Assembly: GCA_964471385.1 (NCBI GenBank)
Contig: CAYYFJ010000004.1
Span: forward strand, 1 to 33,880
From: an uncultured Candidatus Saccharibacteria bacterium
Lineage (GTDB): Bacteria > Patescibacteriota > Minisyncoccia > Minisyncoccales > UBA10102
Length of the DNA: 33,880 nucleotides
Direction of reading: 5' to 3'
Below, piece after piece: positions 149-33,880 of the stretch. How positions within the stretch are numbered: position 1 is the stretch's first letter; each line of letters begins with the position of its first letter. The notes below the pieces were generated by a model. That model was not told where the DNA came from and did no database searches. It was given only the letters and a program-made list of their open reading frames with translations. The position numbers were made by a program, and so were the translations under genes.

Positions 149-2656
149 ATGCCTTCAAGAACAACACGCAGAGCAGAGTCTGTCGCGCGCGATACGGCAG
201 TGATTGGCGCGCCGATACAAGCGCCATTCAAACCGGAACAGGGTGCTGAAGAAAAAACCCCGTCACATTCGGCGCGGGGAATTGGAGAAAAAAAAGAAAC
301 CGCGTGGGCGCAAGCTTCGTGGCCCGAGAGAATCGCAAAAGCAAGCGTATGCCTGCTGGCGGCGTTATTGCCTTTGTGGTTTTTGCCGTTCACGCAGGAT
401 GTGCTGGCGTATCAAAAGCAGATATTGCTTTTGGCGTTTGTTGTCCTTGCTTCCATTGCGTGGCTCGCTGATAGTATTGGCAAGCAGGAAATTGTTTCTA
501 GAAGGCACGCAGTGCTCGGGTCTCTTGCTTTGCTGGTCGGAGCGGTCGGGATTTCTTCCGCGTTGTCATTGTGGAGCTACGGGAGTTTTTGGGGATTTCC
601 GTTGAACAGCACCGACAGCTTTGCGACTCTTTTTGGGTTTGCCATGCTGTATGTTTTAATCGTTCATGTCTATCGCGAGCCAAAAGAGCTCGCTCTGCCA
701 TACCTTTTGCTTGCAGGATCGCTTTTTCTCGGCACGGCGTTCGCTCTTCTTCAACTGCTCCAGCTTTATATCCTTCCGTTTGCGTTTGCCCGCGCGAGCG
801 TGTTTAACACACTGGGCAGTGTAAATAATATTGCGTTGCTTGCCGCGGCTTTTCTTCCCATGGTTCTCGCGCTTATGTCCGCCGCGCGCTCTTTCATGCG
901 GTGGGCGCTCTTTGGCATTATCCTTTTTTTTGCCGCGTTTCTTGTCCTTGTCAATTTTGCGAGCGCATGGATTGTTTTGCTGGCGGGATTGTCGGCGTTG
1001 ATTGTGTTCGGCATGTGGAATTCTCAAAAGCGGGTTGACTTTAGCCGCGTTTCTTTCCCCATTGTTCTTCTCGCGCTTGCCCTGTTTTTTCTCATGTTCC
1101 GCGTGGCAATTCCCTGGTCCCCGAATATTCCTCTTGAAGTGAGCCCAAGCTTTTCTTCTGAAGTTGAGATTGCAAAGAGCGTGTTGCAAGAGCGTCCCGT
1201 GACCGGATCGGGGCCCGGCACCTTTGTGTTTGATTACGCGAAGCATCATTCAGCGGCTCTGAACCAAACGGTGTTTTGGAGCACTCGTTTTGCTTCGGGA
1301 TCCTCGGAATTGTTTGACTGGGTTGTAACCAAAGGGGCGCTTGGCGCGCTTTCGCTTCTGCTTTTTATCGCGTTTACTTTGCGGCTGGGACTGAAAAATC
1401 TTTTGTCTTTGCCAGAGGATCAGGCAAGCCGGGCGGTAAGCCTGGGAAGTTCCGCGATGTTTGCGGCATTGTCCTTGTCGCTTGCGCTGTACCCCGCGTC
1501 TTTCATCACATGGTTTCTTTTTTGGGCGTCCGCGGCAGGAGTTTTTGCCGCATACGAAGGGCCCGCGCGCGTTTTTTCCATTGCTCCGCCCTCCCGGATT
1601 GCGCTTGCGATTTCATCCGCGTTTTTATTTGTCCTTATCTTCGGCATCGGCTTTTTCTATGTGCAGGGCCAGAAATACACGGCTGACATACGGTACACGC
1701 AGGGGCTTTGGGCGCTTCAAACGGGGAATAACGAAACCGCGATAGCGCGCATGTTTTCGGCAGTGAATCTTAATCCTTCCATTGATATCTATTGGAGGGA
1801 TTTGGCGCAGGTGTATCTTGCGCAGATAGGGCCGTCTTTCTCAAACGAGGCGTTTTCAAAAGAACAGCGCCAGCAGCAGGCGCAGAGCGTCATGGCAAAT
1901 GCTATTGCCGCGGCAAAACGGGCAACAGCGCTTTCACCAAACAATGTGGCAAACTGGAACGTGCTCGGTTTTGTGTACAGGAACCTTGTCGGCATTCCGC
2001 AGGCCGAAGAATTTGCGATATCCAGCTATGAAAAAGCCGCAGAGCTGGAACCGGCTTCCCCGTTTGCGTGGGCGGAAATGGGAAGAGTGTACGCGGCAAG
2101 CGGCCAGAATCTTTCCCTGAAGGGCGAAACAAAATCGCAAAGCGAGGCGGCATACGCAAAAGCGCTTGATGCGCTCGCGAACGCAACCGGCTTAAAATCA
2201 GATTACGCGCCCGCGCATTTTCTTATTGCCACGGTGTATGAAGGGCAGGGAAGGACAGGAGAGGCATCAAGGAAGCTGAAAGAAATTGCAAACATGAACC
2301 CAAGCGATACGGGAATCGCTTTTCAGCTTGGCGTGCTGTATTGGCAGAAAAAAGACATTGAAAGCGCGCAGAAAGAATTTGAACGCGCGAAAACTCTGAA
2401 TCCTTTGTACGCCAATGCGCGGTATATGCTCGGGCTTGTGTATGAAAAACAAGGCAGAATATCTGCGGCAAAGGAAGAATTTGAAGCGGTCTTGAGGCTA
2501 AACCCCAAGAATGAAGAAATAAAAAACATTCTCGCGAATCTTGAAGCGGGGAAGCCGGCTCTTGAAGGAATAGCGCCAAGCCAGCCCCCGGTTTCTGAAA
2601 ATCCGCCTGAAATAAAAACGCAGGAACCAGAACCCGCCCAAAAGAAAGAGAAATAA
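149..2656 (+). CDS. O-antigen-ligase-like polytopic membrane protein fused to C-terminal TPR repeats
   Basis: 835-aa ORF. The N-terminal ~470 aa are multi-pass hydrophobic and Wzy_C-like. The C-terminal ~300 aa are TPR repeats (e.g. NPLYANARYMLGLVYEKQGRISAAKEEFEAVLRLNP). The start codon is uncertain because there is no SD. Confidence 0.7.
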   Translation: MPSRTTRRAESVARDTAVIGAPIQAPFKPEQGAEEKTPSHSARGIGEKKETAWAQASWPERIAKASVCLLAALLPLWFLPFTQDVLAYQKQILLLAFVVLASIAWLADSIGKQEIVSRRHAVLGSLALLVGAVGISSALSLWSYGSFWGFPLNSTDSFATLFGFAMLYVLIVHVYREPKELALPYLLLAGSLFLGTAFALLQLLQLYILPFAFARASVFNTLGSVNNIALLAAAFLPMVLALMSAARSFMRWALFGIILFFAAFLVLVNFASAWIVLLAGLSALIVFGMWNSQKRVDFSRVSFPIVLLALALFFLMFRVAIPWSPNIPLEVSPSFSSEVEIAKSVLQERPVTGSGPGTFVFDYAKHHSAALNQTVFWSTRFASGSSELFDWVVTKGALGALSLLLFIAFTLRLGLKNLLSLPEDQASRAVSLGSSAMFAALSLSLALYPASFITWFLFWASAAGVFAAYEGPARVFSIAPPSRIALAISSAFLFVLIFGIGFFYVQGQKYTADIRYTQGLWALQTGNNETAIARMFSAVNLNPSIDIYWRDLAQVYLAQIGPSFSNEAFSKEQRQQQAQSVMANAIAAAKRATALSPNNVANWNVLGFVYRNLVGIPQAEEFAISSYEKAAELEPASPFAWAEMGRVYAASGQNLSLKGETKSQSEAAYAKALDALANATGLKSDYAPAHFLIATVYEGQGRTGEASRKLKEIANMNPSDTGIAFQLGVLYWQKKDIESAQKEFERAKTLNPLYANARYMLGLVYEKQGRISAAKEEFEAVLRLNPKNEEIKNILANLEAGKPALEGIAPSQPPVSENPPEIKTQEPEPAQKKEK

Positions 2657-32480: not shown

Positions 32481-33011
32481 ATGGTTTGTCCCCTTTGCAA
32501 CATAAAACTTCATAATGCTTTGCTCTCGGGCGTGGACATTGACTACTGCCCGCGGTGTTACGGATTGTGGTTTGAGGAAGACGAGCTCCAGTCTGCAAAA
32601 GACGAGAAAGACAGAAATCTGCGCTGGCTTGACATTGATTTGTGGCGCGACAAAACCCGATTTCGCATTTCCCGCCAGCACAAACTCTGCCCTTTTGACA
32701 GAATGCCTTTGTACGAGGTACGGTATGGAGACTCAATCGTCAAAGTTGACGTGTGCAATCTTTGCCATGGCGTGTGGCTGGACAGGGGAGAATTCAAGGG
32801 AATTATTGCTTATCTTCAGGAAAAAGGAGAACATGCGACGCTGTATCATTATCTGCGCAATCTCAAAGAAGAGCTCTGGGAAGTTTTTTACGGCCCCGAA
32901 TTACTGCGGGAAGAATTGCTTGATTTCTTGACCGTGCTCAAGCTTTTGCGCTATAAATTCGCCGTGCAGTATCCCCATCTCTTTGAAGCAATCTCCCTGC
33001 TTCCGCGGTAA
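32481..33011 (+). CDS. Protein with two TFIIB-type zinc-ribbon domains (zf-TFIIB, PF13453-like)
   Basis: Two copies of CPxC...G..ID.CP.C.G.W.D..E (CPLCNIKL...DYCPRCYGLWFEEDEL and CPFDRMPL...DVCNLCHGVWLDRGEF), followed by a helical C-terminal half. Confidence 0.7.
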   Translation: MVCPLCNIKLHNALLSGVDIDYCPRCYGLWFEEDELQSAKDEKDRNLRWLDIDLWRDKTRFRISRQHKLCPFDRMPLYEVRYGDSIVKVDVCNLCHGVWLDRGEFKGIIAYLQEKGEHATLYHYLRNLKEELWEVFYGPELLREELLDFLTVLKLLRYKFAVQYPHLFEAISLLPR

Positions 33012-33020
33012 ACAAAACAT

Positions 33021-33075
33021 GGAGGGGTCGCATCCAGCCCGAGGCTGGTCGGCCTTGGGCCGAAGTGGCCTAGTG
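33021..33075 (+). pseudogene. Displaced 5' fragment of tRNA-Ser, interrupted by a 30-nt twin hairpin
   Basis: GGAGGGGTCGCAT + [CCAGCCCGAGGCTGG TCGGCCTTGGGCCGA] + AGTGGCCTAGTG. Without the bracketed insert it equals nt 1-25 of the tRNA at 33348. Confidence 0.75.
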
Positions 33076-33077
33076 AT

Positions 33078-33362
33078 ATGTATTATGTTTATATTATTCA
33101 AAGCACTCAAAATAAAAAACTTTATAAGGGAATAACAGAAGATTTGAGAAGTAGAATGCAAGAGCATAATCGTGGGTGTACGCTGTCAACGAAATCTGGT
33201 ATTCCTTGGAGGCTAGTTTATTATGAAGCATTTTTAAATAAAACTGATGCTAAGAGAGAGGAAATTTTTTTAAAATCTGGAAAAGGAAGAGAGCGCATTC
33301 ATTATTTGCTAAAGTATACTTTGAAAAAAGGAAATAGGGTCAATCATGGAGGGGTCGCATAG
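33078..33362 (+). CDS. Small GIY-YIG nuclease family protein (UPF0213/COG2827-like)
   Basis: 94-aa ORF (YYVYIIQS...KLYKGITEDLRSRMQEHN...WRLVYYEAF...A.REE..LKS). The segment is clearly more AT-rich than its neighbours. The last 5 codons plus the stop overlap the tRNA-Ser 5' end. Confidence 0.8.
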   Translation: MYYVYIIQSTQNKKLYKGITEDLRSRMQEHNRGCTLSTKSGIPWRLVYYEAFLNKTDAKREEIFLKSGKGRERIHYLLKYTLKKGNRVNHGGVA

Positions 33363-33434
33363 TGGCCTAGTGCGGTTGCTTGGAAAGCAACTATGTCCGA
33401 AAGGGCATCGCGAGTTCAAATCTCGCCCCCTCCG
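33348..33434 (+). tRNA. tRNA-Ser (anticodon GGA), class II, CCA not encoded
   Basis: Hand fold: acceptor GGAGGGG/CCCCTCC, anticodon stem GTTGC/GCAAC with loop TTGGAAA, long variable arm ATGTCC-GAAA-GGGCAT, T-arm GCGAG TTCAAAT CTCGC, discriminator G. Confidence 0.9.
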
Positions 33435-33600
33435 CAGTGAGCGAAGCGAACAAGGAAGAGGGAGTGGGCAAACTGCTTTGCCCACATTGGGATGAGAAGC
33501 CCGGAGCGATGAGCGAGTTCTCCCGAAGGAAGCCGAGGGAGAGGCGAGCGCCGCGAGGGCCGGTTCAGAGGAAATTGCCGTCAGGCAATTTACCGAAGGA

Positions 33601-33620
33601 AAATCTCGCCCCCTCCGCCA
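33601..33620 (+). repeat. Duplicated 3' end of tRNA-Ser (AAATCTCGCCCCCTCCGCCA), att-like direct repeat
   Basis: Its first 18 nt are identical to 33418-33435. This copy ends in CCA, whereas the intact gene continues GCAG. No T-stem partner lies upstream, so it is a fragment. Confidence 0.8.
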
Positions 33621-33880
33621 ATAGAAACTTCGCGATTTGAAAGAGCGGACATGCGCCGTGTGCCCATCACGGCGCGCGACAATTTCTCTCGCCGCAAAGC
33701 GGCGAATTGGCTCGGCGGGGGGAATTCAAAAAAGGCGGATTTGGTGGACAGAAAAGTCAGAAATCATCCATTGAAAAAATCGTAGATTTTTGCTATGCTT
33801 GTTTTGTGAGCAAAGAAAGCAATGACTCATATTTCTATACTATCAAAAGTAGCATACTATGGCAACTATATCACAGAACA

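Follow-up and report, generated by a model that had tools for sequence, protein, structure and literature searches.

A candidate self-healing GIY-YIG–tRNA cassette and a second, 3' element at one tRNA-Ser(GGA) gene of an uncultured patescibacterium

Integrase-bearing islands and prophages at tRNA genes share with them a block of identity that runs from the T-loop or the anticodon loop to the 3' end. In phage T4, SegB is a GIY-YIG homing enzyme that recognises a tRNA T-loop motif and spreads with tRNA genes (PMC2330249, PMC13096335), and cleavage of the SegB type duplicates tRNA segments (PMC13096335). Here we describe a tRNA-Ser(GGA) gene of an uncultured Candidatus Saccharibacteria bacterium that is flanked by displaced copies of both its own ends, with a small GIY-YIG open reading frame (ORF) running into its 5' end and a structured spacer behind it. 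It lies in a stretch of 33,880 nt (contig CAYYFJ010000004.1 of assembly GCA_964471385.1), called "the window" throughout. On the sequence evidence we think it probable, on balance, that two independent small insertions took place in this one gene, the 5' one being a self-healing, homing-like selfish cassette.

Dispersed palindromes form the other background to this locus. Repetitive extragenic palindromic sequences and bacterial interspersed mosaic elements (REP/BIME) are hairpin repeats that are scattered through intergenic regions, often in inverted pairs, and are served by a dedicated TnpA-like gene, itself flanked by the repeat, for a REP-associated tyrosine transposase (RAYT); this enzyme, of the HUH/Y1 type, can perform strand transfer. 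GIY-YIG enzymes, to our knowledge, only hydrolyse and form no covalent intermediates. Rickettsia palindromic elements (RPEs) are selfish palindromes of about 100-150 bp that lie in frame within protein-coding genes and also in RNA genes; we know of no nuclease gene associated with them. In Allomyces, a free-standing endonuclease ORF is said to have brought a replacement gene end with it (the atp6/ORF case). RPEs are mentioned in PMC1779305, and PMC2800124 lists references on the G+C-rich palindromes of mitochondria, namely the double-hairpin elements (DHEs) of Allomyces, the GC clusters of yeast and the palindromes flanking tRNA genes in Neurospora. Full-text literature searches returned no description of GIY-YIG–tRNA cassettes, or of the hairpin elements reported below, in bacteria of the candidate phyla radiation (CPR); the cassette design, which recurs at hundreds of tRNA genes in these bacteria, is apparently undescribed.

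The locus and its empty counterparts

A preliminary description of this DNA had listed, in order, a 5' copy, an ORF, the intact tRNA-Ser, a spacer and a 3' copy, and all of these pieces are present in the sequence. The displaced 5' fragment (33018-33033, + strand) consists of three flanking nucleotides (CAT) and tRNA nt 1-13 (33021-33033), and the stub starts 9 nt past the stop codon (33009-33011) of a Zn-ribbon gene. Exactly between nt 13 and nt 14 of the fragment stands a double hairpin (HH; 33034-33063), CCAGCC-CGA-GGCTGG followed by TCGGCC-TTG-GGCCGA, after which tRNA nt 14-25 continue in register (33064-33075, + strand; 12/12 matches, offset 0) and tRNA homology then stops. The match to tRNA nt 1-25 with three upstream nucleotides that had been claimed is real; the 30-nt HH insert after nt 13, which is the hallmark of the whole family, had been overlooked.

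The ORF (33078-33362, + strand) has 94 codons and a core of about residues 1-83, and it is indeed a GIY-YIG gene as had been proposed, matching PF01541 at 53.2 bits against a cut-off of 22.6 (E 3.8e-14). Its TAG stop codon (33360-33362) lies inside the D-loop of the tRNA, the ORF tail NHGGVA* being translated from the tRNA 5' end. The tRNA-Ser(GGA) itself (33348-33435, + strand), which encodes no CCA, is found by both ARAGORN (33348-33435) and the Rfam tRNA model RF00005 (55 bits, 33348-33434), confirming the earlier reading of the gene. Behind it come a purine- and G+C-rich structured element of 165 nt (33436-33600, + strand; not 166 nt, as first given) and a displaced copy of the tRNA 3' end (33601-33620, + strand) that runs from the T-loop to the discriminator with 18/18 identity and is followed by CA, so that CCA is encoded. 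The outer copy ends ...CCGCCA and the inner copy ...CCGCAG, just as the preliminary description had it.

The two repeats on which the description depends were not misread. The pattern CATGGAGGGGTCGCAT-N(0-30)-AGTGGCCTAGTG occurs exactly twice (33018-33075 and 33345-33372; 0 expected from 100 shuffles), and so does the 18-mer AAATCTCGCCCCCTCCGC (33418-33435 and 33601-33618; 0 expected from shuffles). The 34-kb window holds a single HH copy, and the G+C content of the ORF region is 31-37% vs about 46-58% in its flanks; the ORF itself measures 30% vs 48% in the comparison made across loci. A scan of the + strand upstream of the 5' stub for promoters and terminators gave nothing useful.

Judged by homologues of its ORF and its upstream Zn-ribbon protein, the window belongs to Patescibacteria (CPR), near Candidatus Wildermuthbacteria; an exact-protein look-up of the window Zn-ribbon protein gave no record. 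Five relatives, which are different species and not alleles of one population, carry the site in its empty form (loci are cited by our L numbers). The gene order GroEL-LemA-M48 peptidase-Zn-ribbon is kept in L082-L085, and in L081, a 1.2-kb contig, only the Zn-ribbon gene (86% identical) and what comes after it are visible. In all five, tRNA-Ser(GGA) comes after the Zn-ribbon gene, and there is no GIY-YIG ORF, hairpin module, 5' stub or 3' copy at the orthologous site; the empty sites that the preliminary description had proposed to look for do exist. ARAGORN makes no tRNA call in L081 and L085 because these contigs end inside the tRNA and hold its 5' part only. In L082 the tRNA begins 14 nt after the stop codon; its CCA is encoded, and a terminator hairpin comes next. 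The arrangement in L083 resembles it, and the tRNA of L084 encodes CCA as well. The window stub matches the tRNA start of L082 and L083 in position, and the tRNA body of the window resembles that of its closest relative (46/49 nt). Taken together, the empty relatives and a stub at the ancestral tRNA start indicate that the window is in a derived, doubly inserted state.

A different kind of insertion has reached the same site in three of the relatives, where a ribbon-helix-helix (RHH) antitoxin and RelE-like toxin pair lies between the Zn-ribbon gene and tRNA-Ser(GGA) (L081 648-1155, L084 3606-4081, L085 3606-4081). The toxin stop codon abuts tRNA nt 1, which makes the 5' edge of the tRNA a hot spot for selfish modules of another kind too.

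The cassette family, the double hairpin and the 3' element

In a survey of one genome per prokaryotic species, relatives of the GIY-YIG ORF were found at at least 546 loci; the detailed counts given here cover the best 80 loci and the window. A profile search of the GIY-YIG family returned 5127 clusters (50% identity representatives) at E<=1e-10. Other GIY-YIG ORFs at tRNA 5' ends, which the preliminary description had proposed to search for in the genome, are the rule in this family: 78 of 87 ORF copies have a tRNA on the same strand immediately downstream, at about -4 to +127 nt, most of the exceptions being contig ends. The partner is a Ser tRNA in 68 cases, with all four anticodons represented, and Tyr, Cys, Thr, Asp, Glu or Trp in the remainder. 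A copy of the local tRNA 5' end is found about 45-60 nt before the ATG at almost every locus, and HH lies 5-41 nt before the ATG in 66-68 loci (83% of ORFs).

About 50 of the 65 HH-bearing loci share one layout: local tRNA nt 1 to x, HH, tRNA nt x+1 to x+k in register, an A+T-rich leader, the ORF and the intact tRNA. In about 50 loci x is 8, 12-14, 20-21, 34-36 or 58, which are exactly the unpaired positions of the cloverleaf; k, the number of tRNA nucleotides that resume after HH, is 2-12 (12 in the window), and the insertion of HH into the stub is exact (offset 0, with no loss or duplication). Derivatives of this layout also occur. Two identical HH-ORF units stand in tandem ahead of one tRNA in L072, a second stub+HH unit without an ORF is present in L008 and L040, and L027 and L141 consist only of stub, HH, k nucleotides, a short spacer and the intact tRNA, without an ORF.

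Several loci preserve more of the gene that was struck. The old tRNA of L088 (acceptor GGAGGCG...CGCCTCC) is split into a 5' stub with HH at 13|14 and a 3' stub with HH at the T-loop, and these halves surround a cassette whose own tRNA has the acceptor GGAGAGG/CCTCTCC and short inverted-repeat flanks. In L064 and L070 the 3' part of the old tRNA is retained behind a second HH, with HH at the same loop position on both junctions, and L006 and L091 have two HHs in different loops; the right-hand HH is retained at only some loci, and most are without it. L049, a sister of L064, has no second HH and a chimeric tRNA, as expected if direct tRNA repeats recombine. Acceptor positions of stub and intact tRNA differ in L003, L017, L006 and L064. 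The cases of L088, L064 and L070 support, in a stronger form, the earlier view that the cassette may bring a functional tRNA, or its 5' part, and leave the resident gene as fragments, and a GIY-YIG cassette with a tRNA 5' portion is plausibly, as had been suggested, a new insertion mode for this nuclease family. Cassettes with their own tRNA also have 8-12-nt inverted repeats that flank the tRNA and would extend the acceptor stem of the precursor (L006 3256-3367; L064 3262-3379; L070 3268-3376; L088 around 779-869, minus strand).

A classical target-site duplication was considered and rejected: duplication of the upstream flank is usually 0-6 nt, and the long cases (L041, L045, L072) are tandem arrays. 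A tRNA intron, of group I or any other kind, was rejected in view of the uninterrupted tRNA and the lack of an Rfam family match. There is an N-run in L041 at about 2030-2040, and many loci end within 300 nt of the ORF; assemblies break at the cassettes and repeats hinder the assembly of metagenome-assembled genomes, so that copy numbers are probably underestimated.

Y5, Y16, G18, R26, H30 and E61/E62, catalytic residues included, are invariant in 30 sequences of the nuclease, the window protein among them. A profile search of the PDB gave 1ZG2 (4.5e-11) and 1YWL (1.6e-6), the UPF0213 proteins BH0048 and EF2693, followed by SLX1 (2e-3 to 6e-3). A UPF0213/SLX1-like single-domain type fits, with the catalytic domain only and family members mostly of 79-130 aa. 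Several homologous proteins likewise have the tail ...HGGVA or ...GEVA, translated from the tRNA 5' end. Amino acid identity exceeds nucleotide identity (e.g., 0.90 vs 0.80), indicating that the ORF is under purifying selection, and its mean G+C content is 32% vs 42% in the flanks (n=78 loci). Lineages with 86-90% protein identity occupy different Ser isoacceptors. The family is almost absent from viral contigs, with one weak match; SegB homology or phage carriage was rejected on this single match and on the identity of only 31-36% with the phage relatives.

The HH module consists of two 15-nt palindromes of the form N3-GCC-NNN-GGC-N3', and it recurs in 67 homologous loci. Across 50 distinct HH sequences, standard pairs fill 600 of 600 cells and 95 double compensatory changes are seen, a result that 0 of 500 shuffles reach. 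Only 2 of the 600 cells are G-T pairs, and HH fits a DNA palindrome better than an RNA helix for that reason; a role as an RNA helix is disfavoured by the same scarcity. There are 183 hairpin modules across the cassette loci vs 0.65 expected.

A metagenome scan with the HH core alone found 58 well-formed copies in 80 metagenome loci. Of these, 26 are in-frame 10-codon insertions in long ORFs, mostly read as SAQGGPASGW or PARGWSALGG, and Pfam confirms among the hosts RecG, LigA, RtcA and DnaJ, one gene for which has three copies; inspection by eye added IleRS and a Clp-type ATPase. In-frame sites are at L136 889-1086, L101 3841, L120 1129, L099 520, L103 1166, L087 9575, L092 6669 and L157 5105. 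A full-length tmRNA gene (L039 2658-3045; 131 bits, model positions 1-374) contains HH at 2948-2977, and dead tRNA pieces with two hairpin insertions (HH or single modules) are present in L059, L093 and L110. The flanks of HH show a preference for T-Y|R-A (e.g., TTC|GAA), with no target duplication, and HH inserts without flanking homology. Judged from this distribution, HH is a general selfish palindromic element of these genomes, and the GIY-YIG gene is its sole consistent protein partner.

On the 3' side, the 165-nt spacer of the window (fold z-score -3.96) shares motifs and helices with L061, L022, L055 and L077, where they lie behind other tRNAs; among them are a GCAAACTGCTTTGC hairpin, GCCGGAGCGATG and a strand resembling GCGAGGCGGTGGC. 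From five members a covariance model (R1) was built, which matches the window at 33454-33619 with 103 bits and detects additional strong copies behind tRNAs for Arg, Glu, Leu and Ser without a GIY-YIG gene, some of them in tandem, and also behind Asp. These matches lie directly 3' of the tRNAs, and their ends copy the 3' end of the preceding tRNA from the T-loop on, either exactly or in decayed form; in the window, the direct repeat of the tRNA 3' part (18/18) bounds the element in an att-like geometry. No recombinase gene is present in the inserts, as the 165-nt insert has no such ORF and the 5' cassette encodes the GIY-YIG protein only. The 3' element is an independent structured family, the outer, CCA-bearing copy being best read as the original end. 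The preliminary description had already taken the 3' side for a second, independent event that pushed the original end outward, and this agrees with L082 and L084, which encode CCA as the outer copy does. It had also called a tRNA rebuilt from both ends by two elements unusual; the arrangement is not unique: about 10 loci besides the window have the 5' cassette and the 3' element together.

Rfam at E<=1 returned only tRNA, together with sub-threshold matches to sX4 and a plastid untranslated region, and no family for the intervening sequences. The sX4 model, a Xanthomonas small RNA, matches at 27-35 bits vs a cut-off of 70 (window 33336-33497, L077 3321-3461), covering the tRNA and the start of the 3' extension; a known RNA (tmRNA-like, Y-RNA-like or sX4) was rejected as an identity for the spacer, the sub-threshold sX4 match being the only candidate and explained by its tRNA part. 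It may be that what the sX4 model describes is also a tRNA bearing an element of this sort at its 3' end. Tandem arrays of 3' elements stand behind one tRNA in L026 (394-528, 543-712), L022 (4575-4722, 4752-4861), L056 (3339-3671) and L152 (3201-3330), each unit ending in a copy of the tRNA 3' end, and L152 has a 100-nt unit with HH in the T-loop copy. Just past the outer 3' copy of the window there is an inverted copy of the T-loop region (33631-33641; CGCGATTTGAA vs TTCAAATCTCG, 10/11), followed at 33653-33675 by a strong hairpin, GCGCCGTG-7 nt-CACGGCGC; together (33631-33675) these may represent either the original terminator or the beginning of a second 3' element that has degenerated.

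How the locus may have arisen

The 5' insertion, in the reading that we favour, would be a cassette of about 330 bp made up of the 30-bp HH, a short leader, the gene for a GIY-YIG nuclease of about 80 residues (84 in this cassette) of the SLX1/UPF0213 type and a copy of the tRNA 5' part, with fuller cassettes elsewhere carrying the whole tRNA. It sits at a single-stranded position of the cloverleaf, in the window 13|14 of the D-loop, and because its right end re-creates the tRNA, the cell would keep a working tRNA gene while the old 5' end remained upstream as a dead stub capped by HH. Transcription of the ORF would start at the tRNA promoter, and RNase P would cut the mRNA free of the tRNA. 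The nuclease, a bare domain, would recognise structure (a folded strand of the tRNA gene, HH, or both) and break unoccupied tRNA genes, and repair would then copy the cassette from the occupied allele, with tRNA sequence providing the homology on either side. Being linked to an essential single-copy tRNA, such a cassette would be hard to lose. Independently, the 165-nt 3' element would have been inserted at the T-loop, providing the inner 3' end and shifting the original CCA-bearing end outward.

Several observations weigh against a homing cassette. The protein is a catalytic domain only, whereas classical GIY-YIG homing enzymes need a DNA-binding domain, and neither Pfam nor NCBIfam shows a DNA-binding extension past about residue 83. 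In sequence the protein is unrelated to SegB or I-TevI-type enzymes: a tblastn search of 50,697 phage records gave only 12 weak matches (31-36% identity), none of them in T4-like phages, and TIGR01453 scores 19 bits vs a cut-off of 56. Unrelated genomes yielded no near-identical cassette; the most similar pairs (90-97% nucleotide identity) probably come from sister genomes. In the window the left homology arm measures just 13 nt, and the 2-12 tRNA nucleotides past HH are left unexplained by simple homing. In L008 (2937-3329) both 5' stubs, of the GGAAGGGTGGCC type, are unlike the downstream intact tRNA-Ser(GGA) (GGAGACGTCGCAT), so that either stubs are able to move along with a cassette or the tRNA behind them has been exchanged. 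Only about 8 of the 58 scanned HH copies adjoin a GIY-YIG ORF and a tRNA and about 50 do not, which means that HH could be a secondary colonist of dead tRNA stubs. Finally, the preliminary description had the ORF and the new 5' end arriving as one unit. The layout of old 5' end, ORF and working tRNA recurs in about 50 independent loci; in the window, with its identical copies and its resident-looking tRNA body, import of the 5' end and local copying fit alike.

It is possible, and we offer it tentatively, that HH and the mini GIY-YIG gene together represent an unrecognised class of bacterial mobile DNA. Structure-specific breaks made by the SLX1-like nuclease at T-Y|R-A, in exposed or folded DNA such as the loops of tRNA genes, would each be sealed by a 30-bp HH patch; solo patches would be strewn across the genome, including essential proteins and tmRNA, and the autonomous copy would split an essential tRNA and carry its replacement, a form of addiction.

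The secondary-colonist idea leads to an account in which HH comes first, and which we regard as unlikely. Here breaks or slippage make partial tRNA duplications, HH accumulates in the neutral dead stubs because their loops hold its preferred target T-Y|R-A, and the ORF is merely a resident of a safe, well-transcribed niche, possibly mobilising HH as RAYT does REP. The wide occurrence of HH without the ORF, with 26 of 58 copies in frame in genes (DnaJ, RecG, LigA and RtcA among them) and one in tmRNA, speaks for it, as do the flank preference, the stubs with two hairpin insertions (L059, L093, L110), the ORF-less stub+HH units (L141, L027) and the segmental duplication of tRNA regions caused by SegB-type cleavage (PMC13096335). 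Random colonisation, however, does not readily give HH at a fixed distance from the ATG, and with the stub ending a constant 2-12 nt after HH the geometry is too regular for it; the tandem of L072, moreover, duplicates HH and ORF together.

Exact joints with HH (offset 0) are also what a circular element might leave if it carried an attP-like mimic of a tRNA loop (nt x-k' to x joined to nt x+1 to x+k) and recombined at x|x+1, HH marking or mediating the joints and solo HH insertions arising from the same joining reaction at a single break. At the cassette ends there are indeed tRNA nucleotides that belong across the cut, k of them following the left HH and k' preceding the right HH (L064, L070, L088), and in L064 and L070 HH is at the same loop position on both junctions. 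We nevertheless find such an element distinctly improbable: there is no recombinase and GIY-YIG hydrolysis passes through no covalent intermediate, the right-hand HH is missing at most loci, the HHs of L006 and L091 are in different loops, and no circular junction was observed.

Purifying selection on the ORF and its tight linkage to tRNA would suit a host function as well, with the protein a tRNA-linked housekeeping or repair factor co-transcribed with tRNA-Ser, HH a stabiliser of the 5' untranslated region or a terminator, and the stub left over from a local duplication; the fusion of a prokaryotic Slx1-like GIY-YIG domain to TrmH gives a hint of RNA metabolism (PMC1564403). This seems very doubtful to us, as the ORF is absent from 5 syntenic relatives, pairs with many different tRNAs, can be present twice or more at one locus, occurs in tandem and ORF-less derivatives and is atypical of the host in composition, and as HH, nearly without G-T pairs (2/600), points to DNA palindromes. 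A chimeric read join at the repeated tRNA is scarcely credible: although tRNA repeats break assemblies, L041 has its N-run and many contigs end at these loci, the same ordered architecture is present in more than 60 independent assemblies from different projects, and the locus is internally consistent, with ORF and tRNA intact.

Comparison with known systems

If the cassette is what it appears to be, it would be among the smallest autonomous selfish elements known in bacteria (about 330 bp), one that works with no more than a catalytic domain and gets round the difficulty of inserting into an essential gene by restoring that gene, and its enzyme could be a minimal structure-specific nuclease of biotechnological interest. 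It would also link the ultra-small Patescibacteria to phenomena of mitochondria (GC clusters, DHEs, endonuclease ORFs) and of Rickettsia, which suggests convergent colonisation of reduced genomes. The 3' element adds a further uncatalogued structured element tied to tRNA 3' ends. Annotators and structure predictors should recognise what these loci give rise to: pseudo-tRNA stubs, ORFs extending into tRNAs, broken contigs and, in conserved proteins, inserts of 10 residues (SAQGGPASGW/PARGWSALGG).

With SegB the cassette shares a GIY-YIG nuclease gene among or next to tRNA genes. SegB, of about 220 aa, is phage-borne and has a DNA-binding part, whereas here a catalytic domain of about 80 aa, of the UPF0213/SLX1 clade, is carried in cellular genomes; SegB also has no hairpin module and no systematic architecture of 5' stub and intact tRNA. 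The resemblance to the mitochondrial elements lies in short G+C-rich double hairpins in an A+T-rich compact genome, inserted without target duplication, tolerated in rRNA and protein genes and kept in the transcripts, and in their occurrence at the junctions of mobile endonuclease ORFs, where the displaced original gene end is left as a fragment. The mitochondrial cases differ in being organellar, in that the replaced ends are 3' ends of protein genes, in their unrelated hairpin sequences and in their full-size LAGLIDADG or GIY-YIG endonucleases.

RPEs are likewise selfish palindromes in frame within the genes of a reduced genome, but have no link to the reconstruction of tRNA genes. The REP/RAYT system offers the same combination of dispersed hairpins with one enzyme gene that is itself flanked by the repeat; REPs, unlike HH, are not in frame in genes and not linked to tRNA. 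The 3' element, for its part, recalls integrase islands in its direct repeat of the last 15-21 tRNA nucleotides from the T-loop, with an inner copy supplied, the original displaced and tandem arrays formed, and departs from them in its size of about 100-185 nt, its lack of an integrase and its conserved internal secondary structure; the 5' cassette departs from them in that it is the 5' end of the tRNA, not the 3' end, that is duplicated. Thus, the system shares features with each of these five known systems and is a member of none of them, and there is a real chance that it is mechanistically new.

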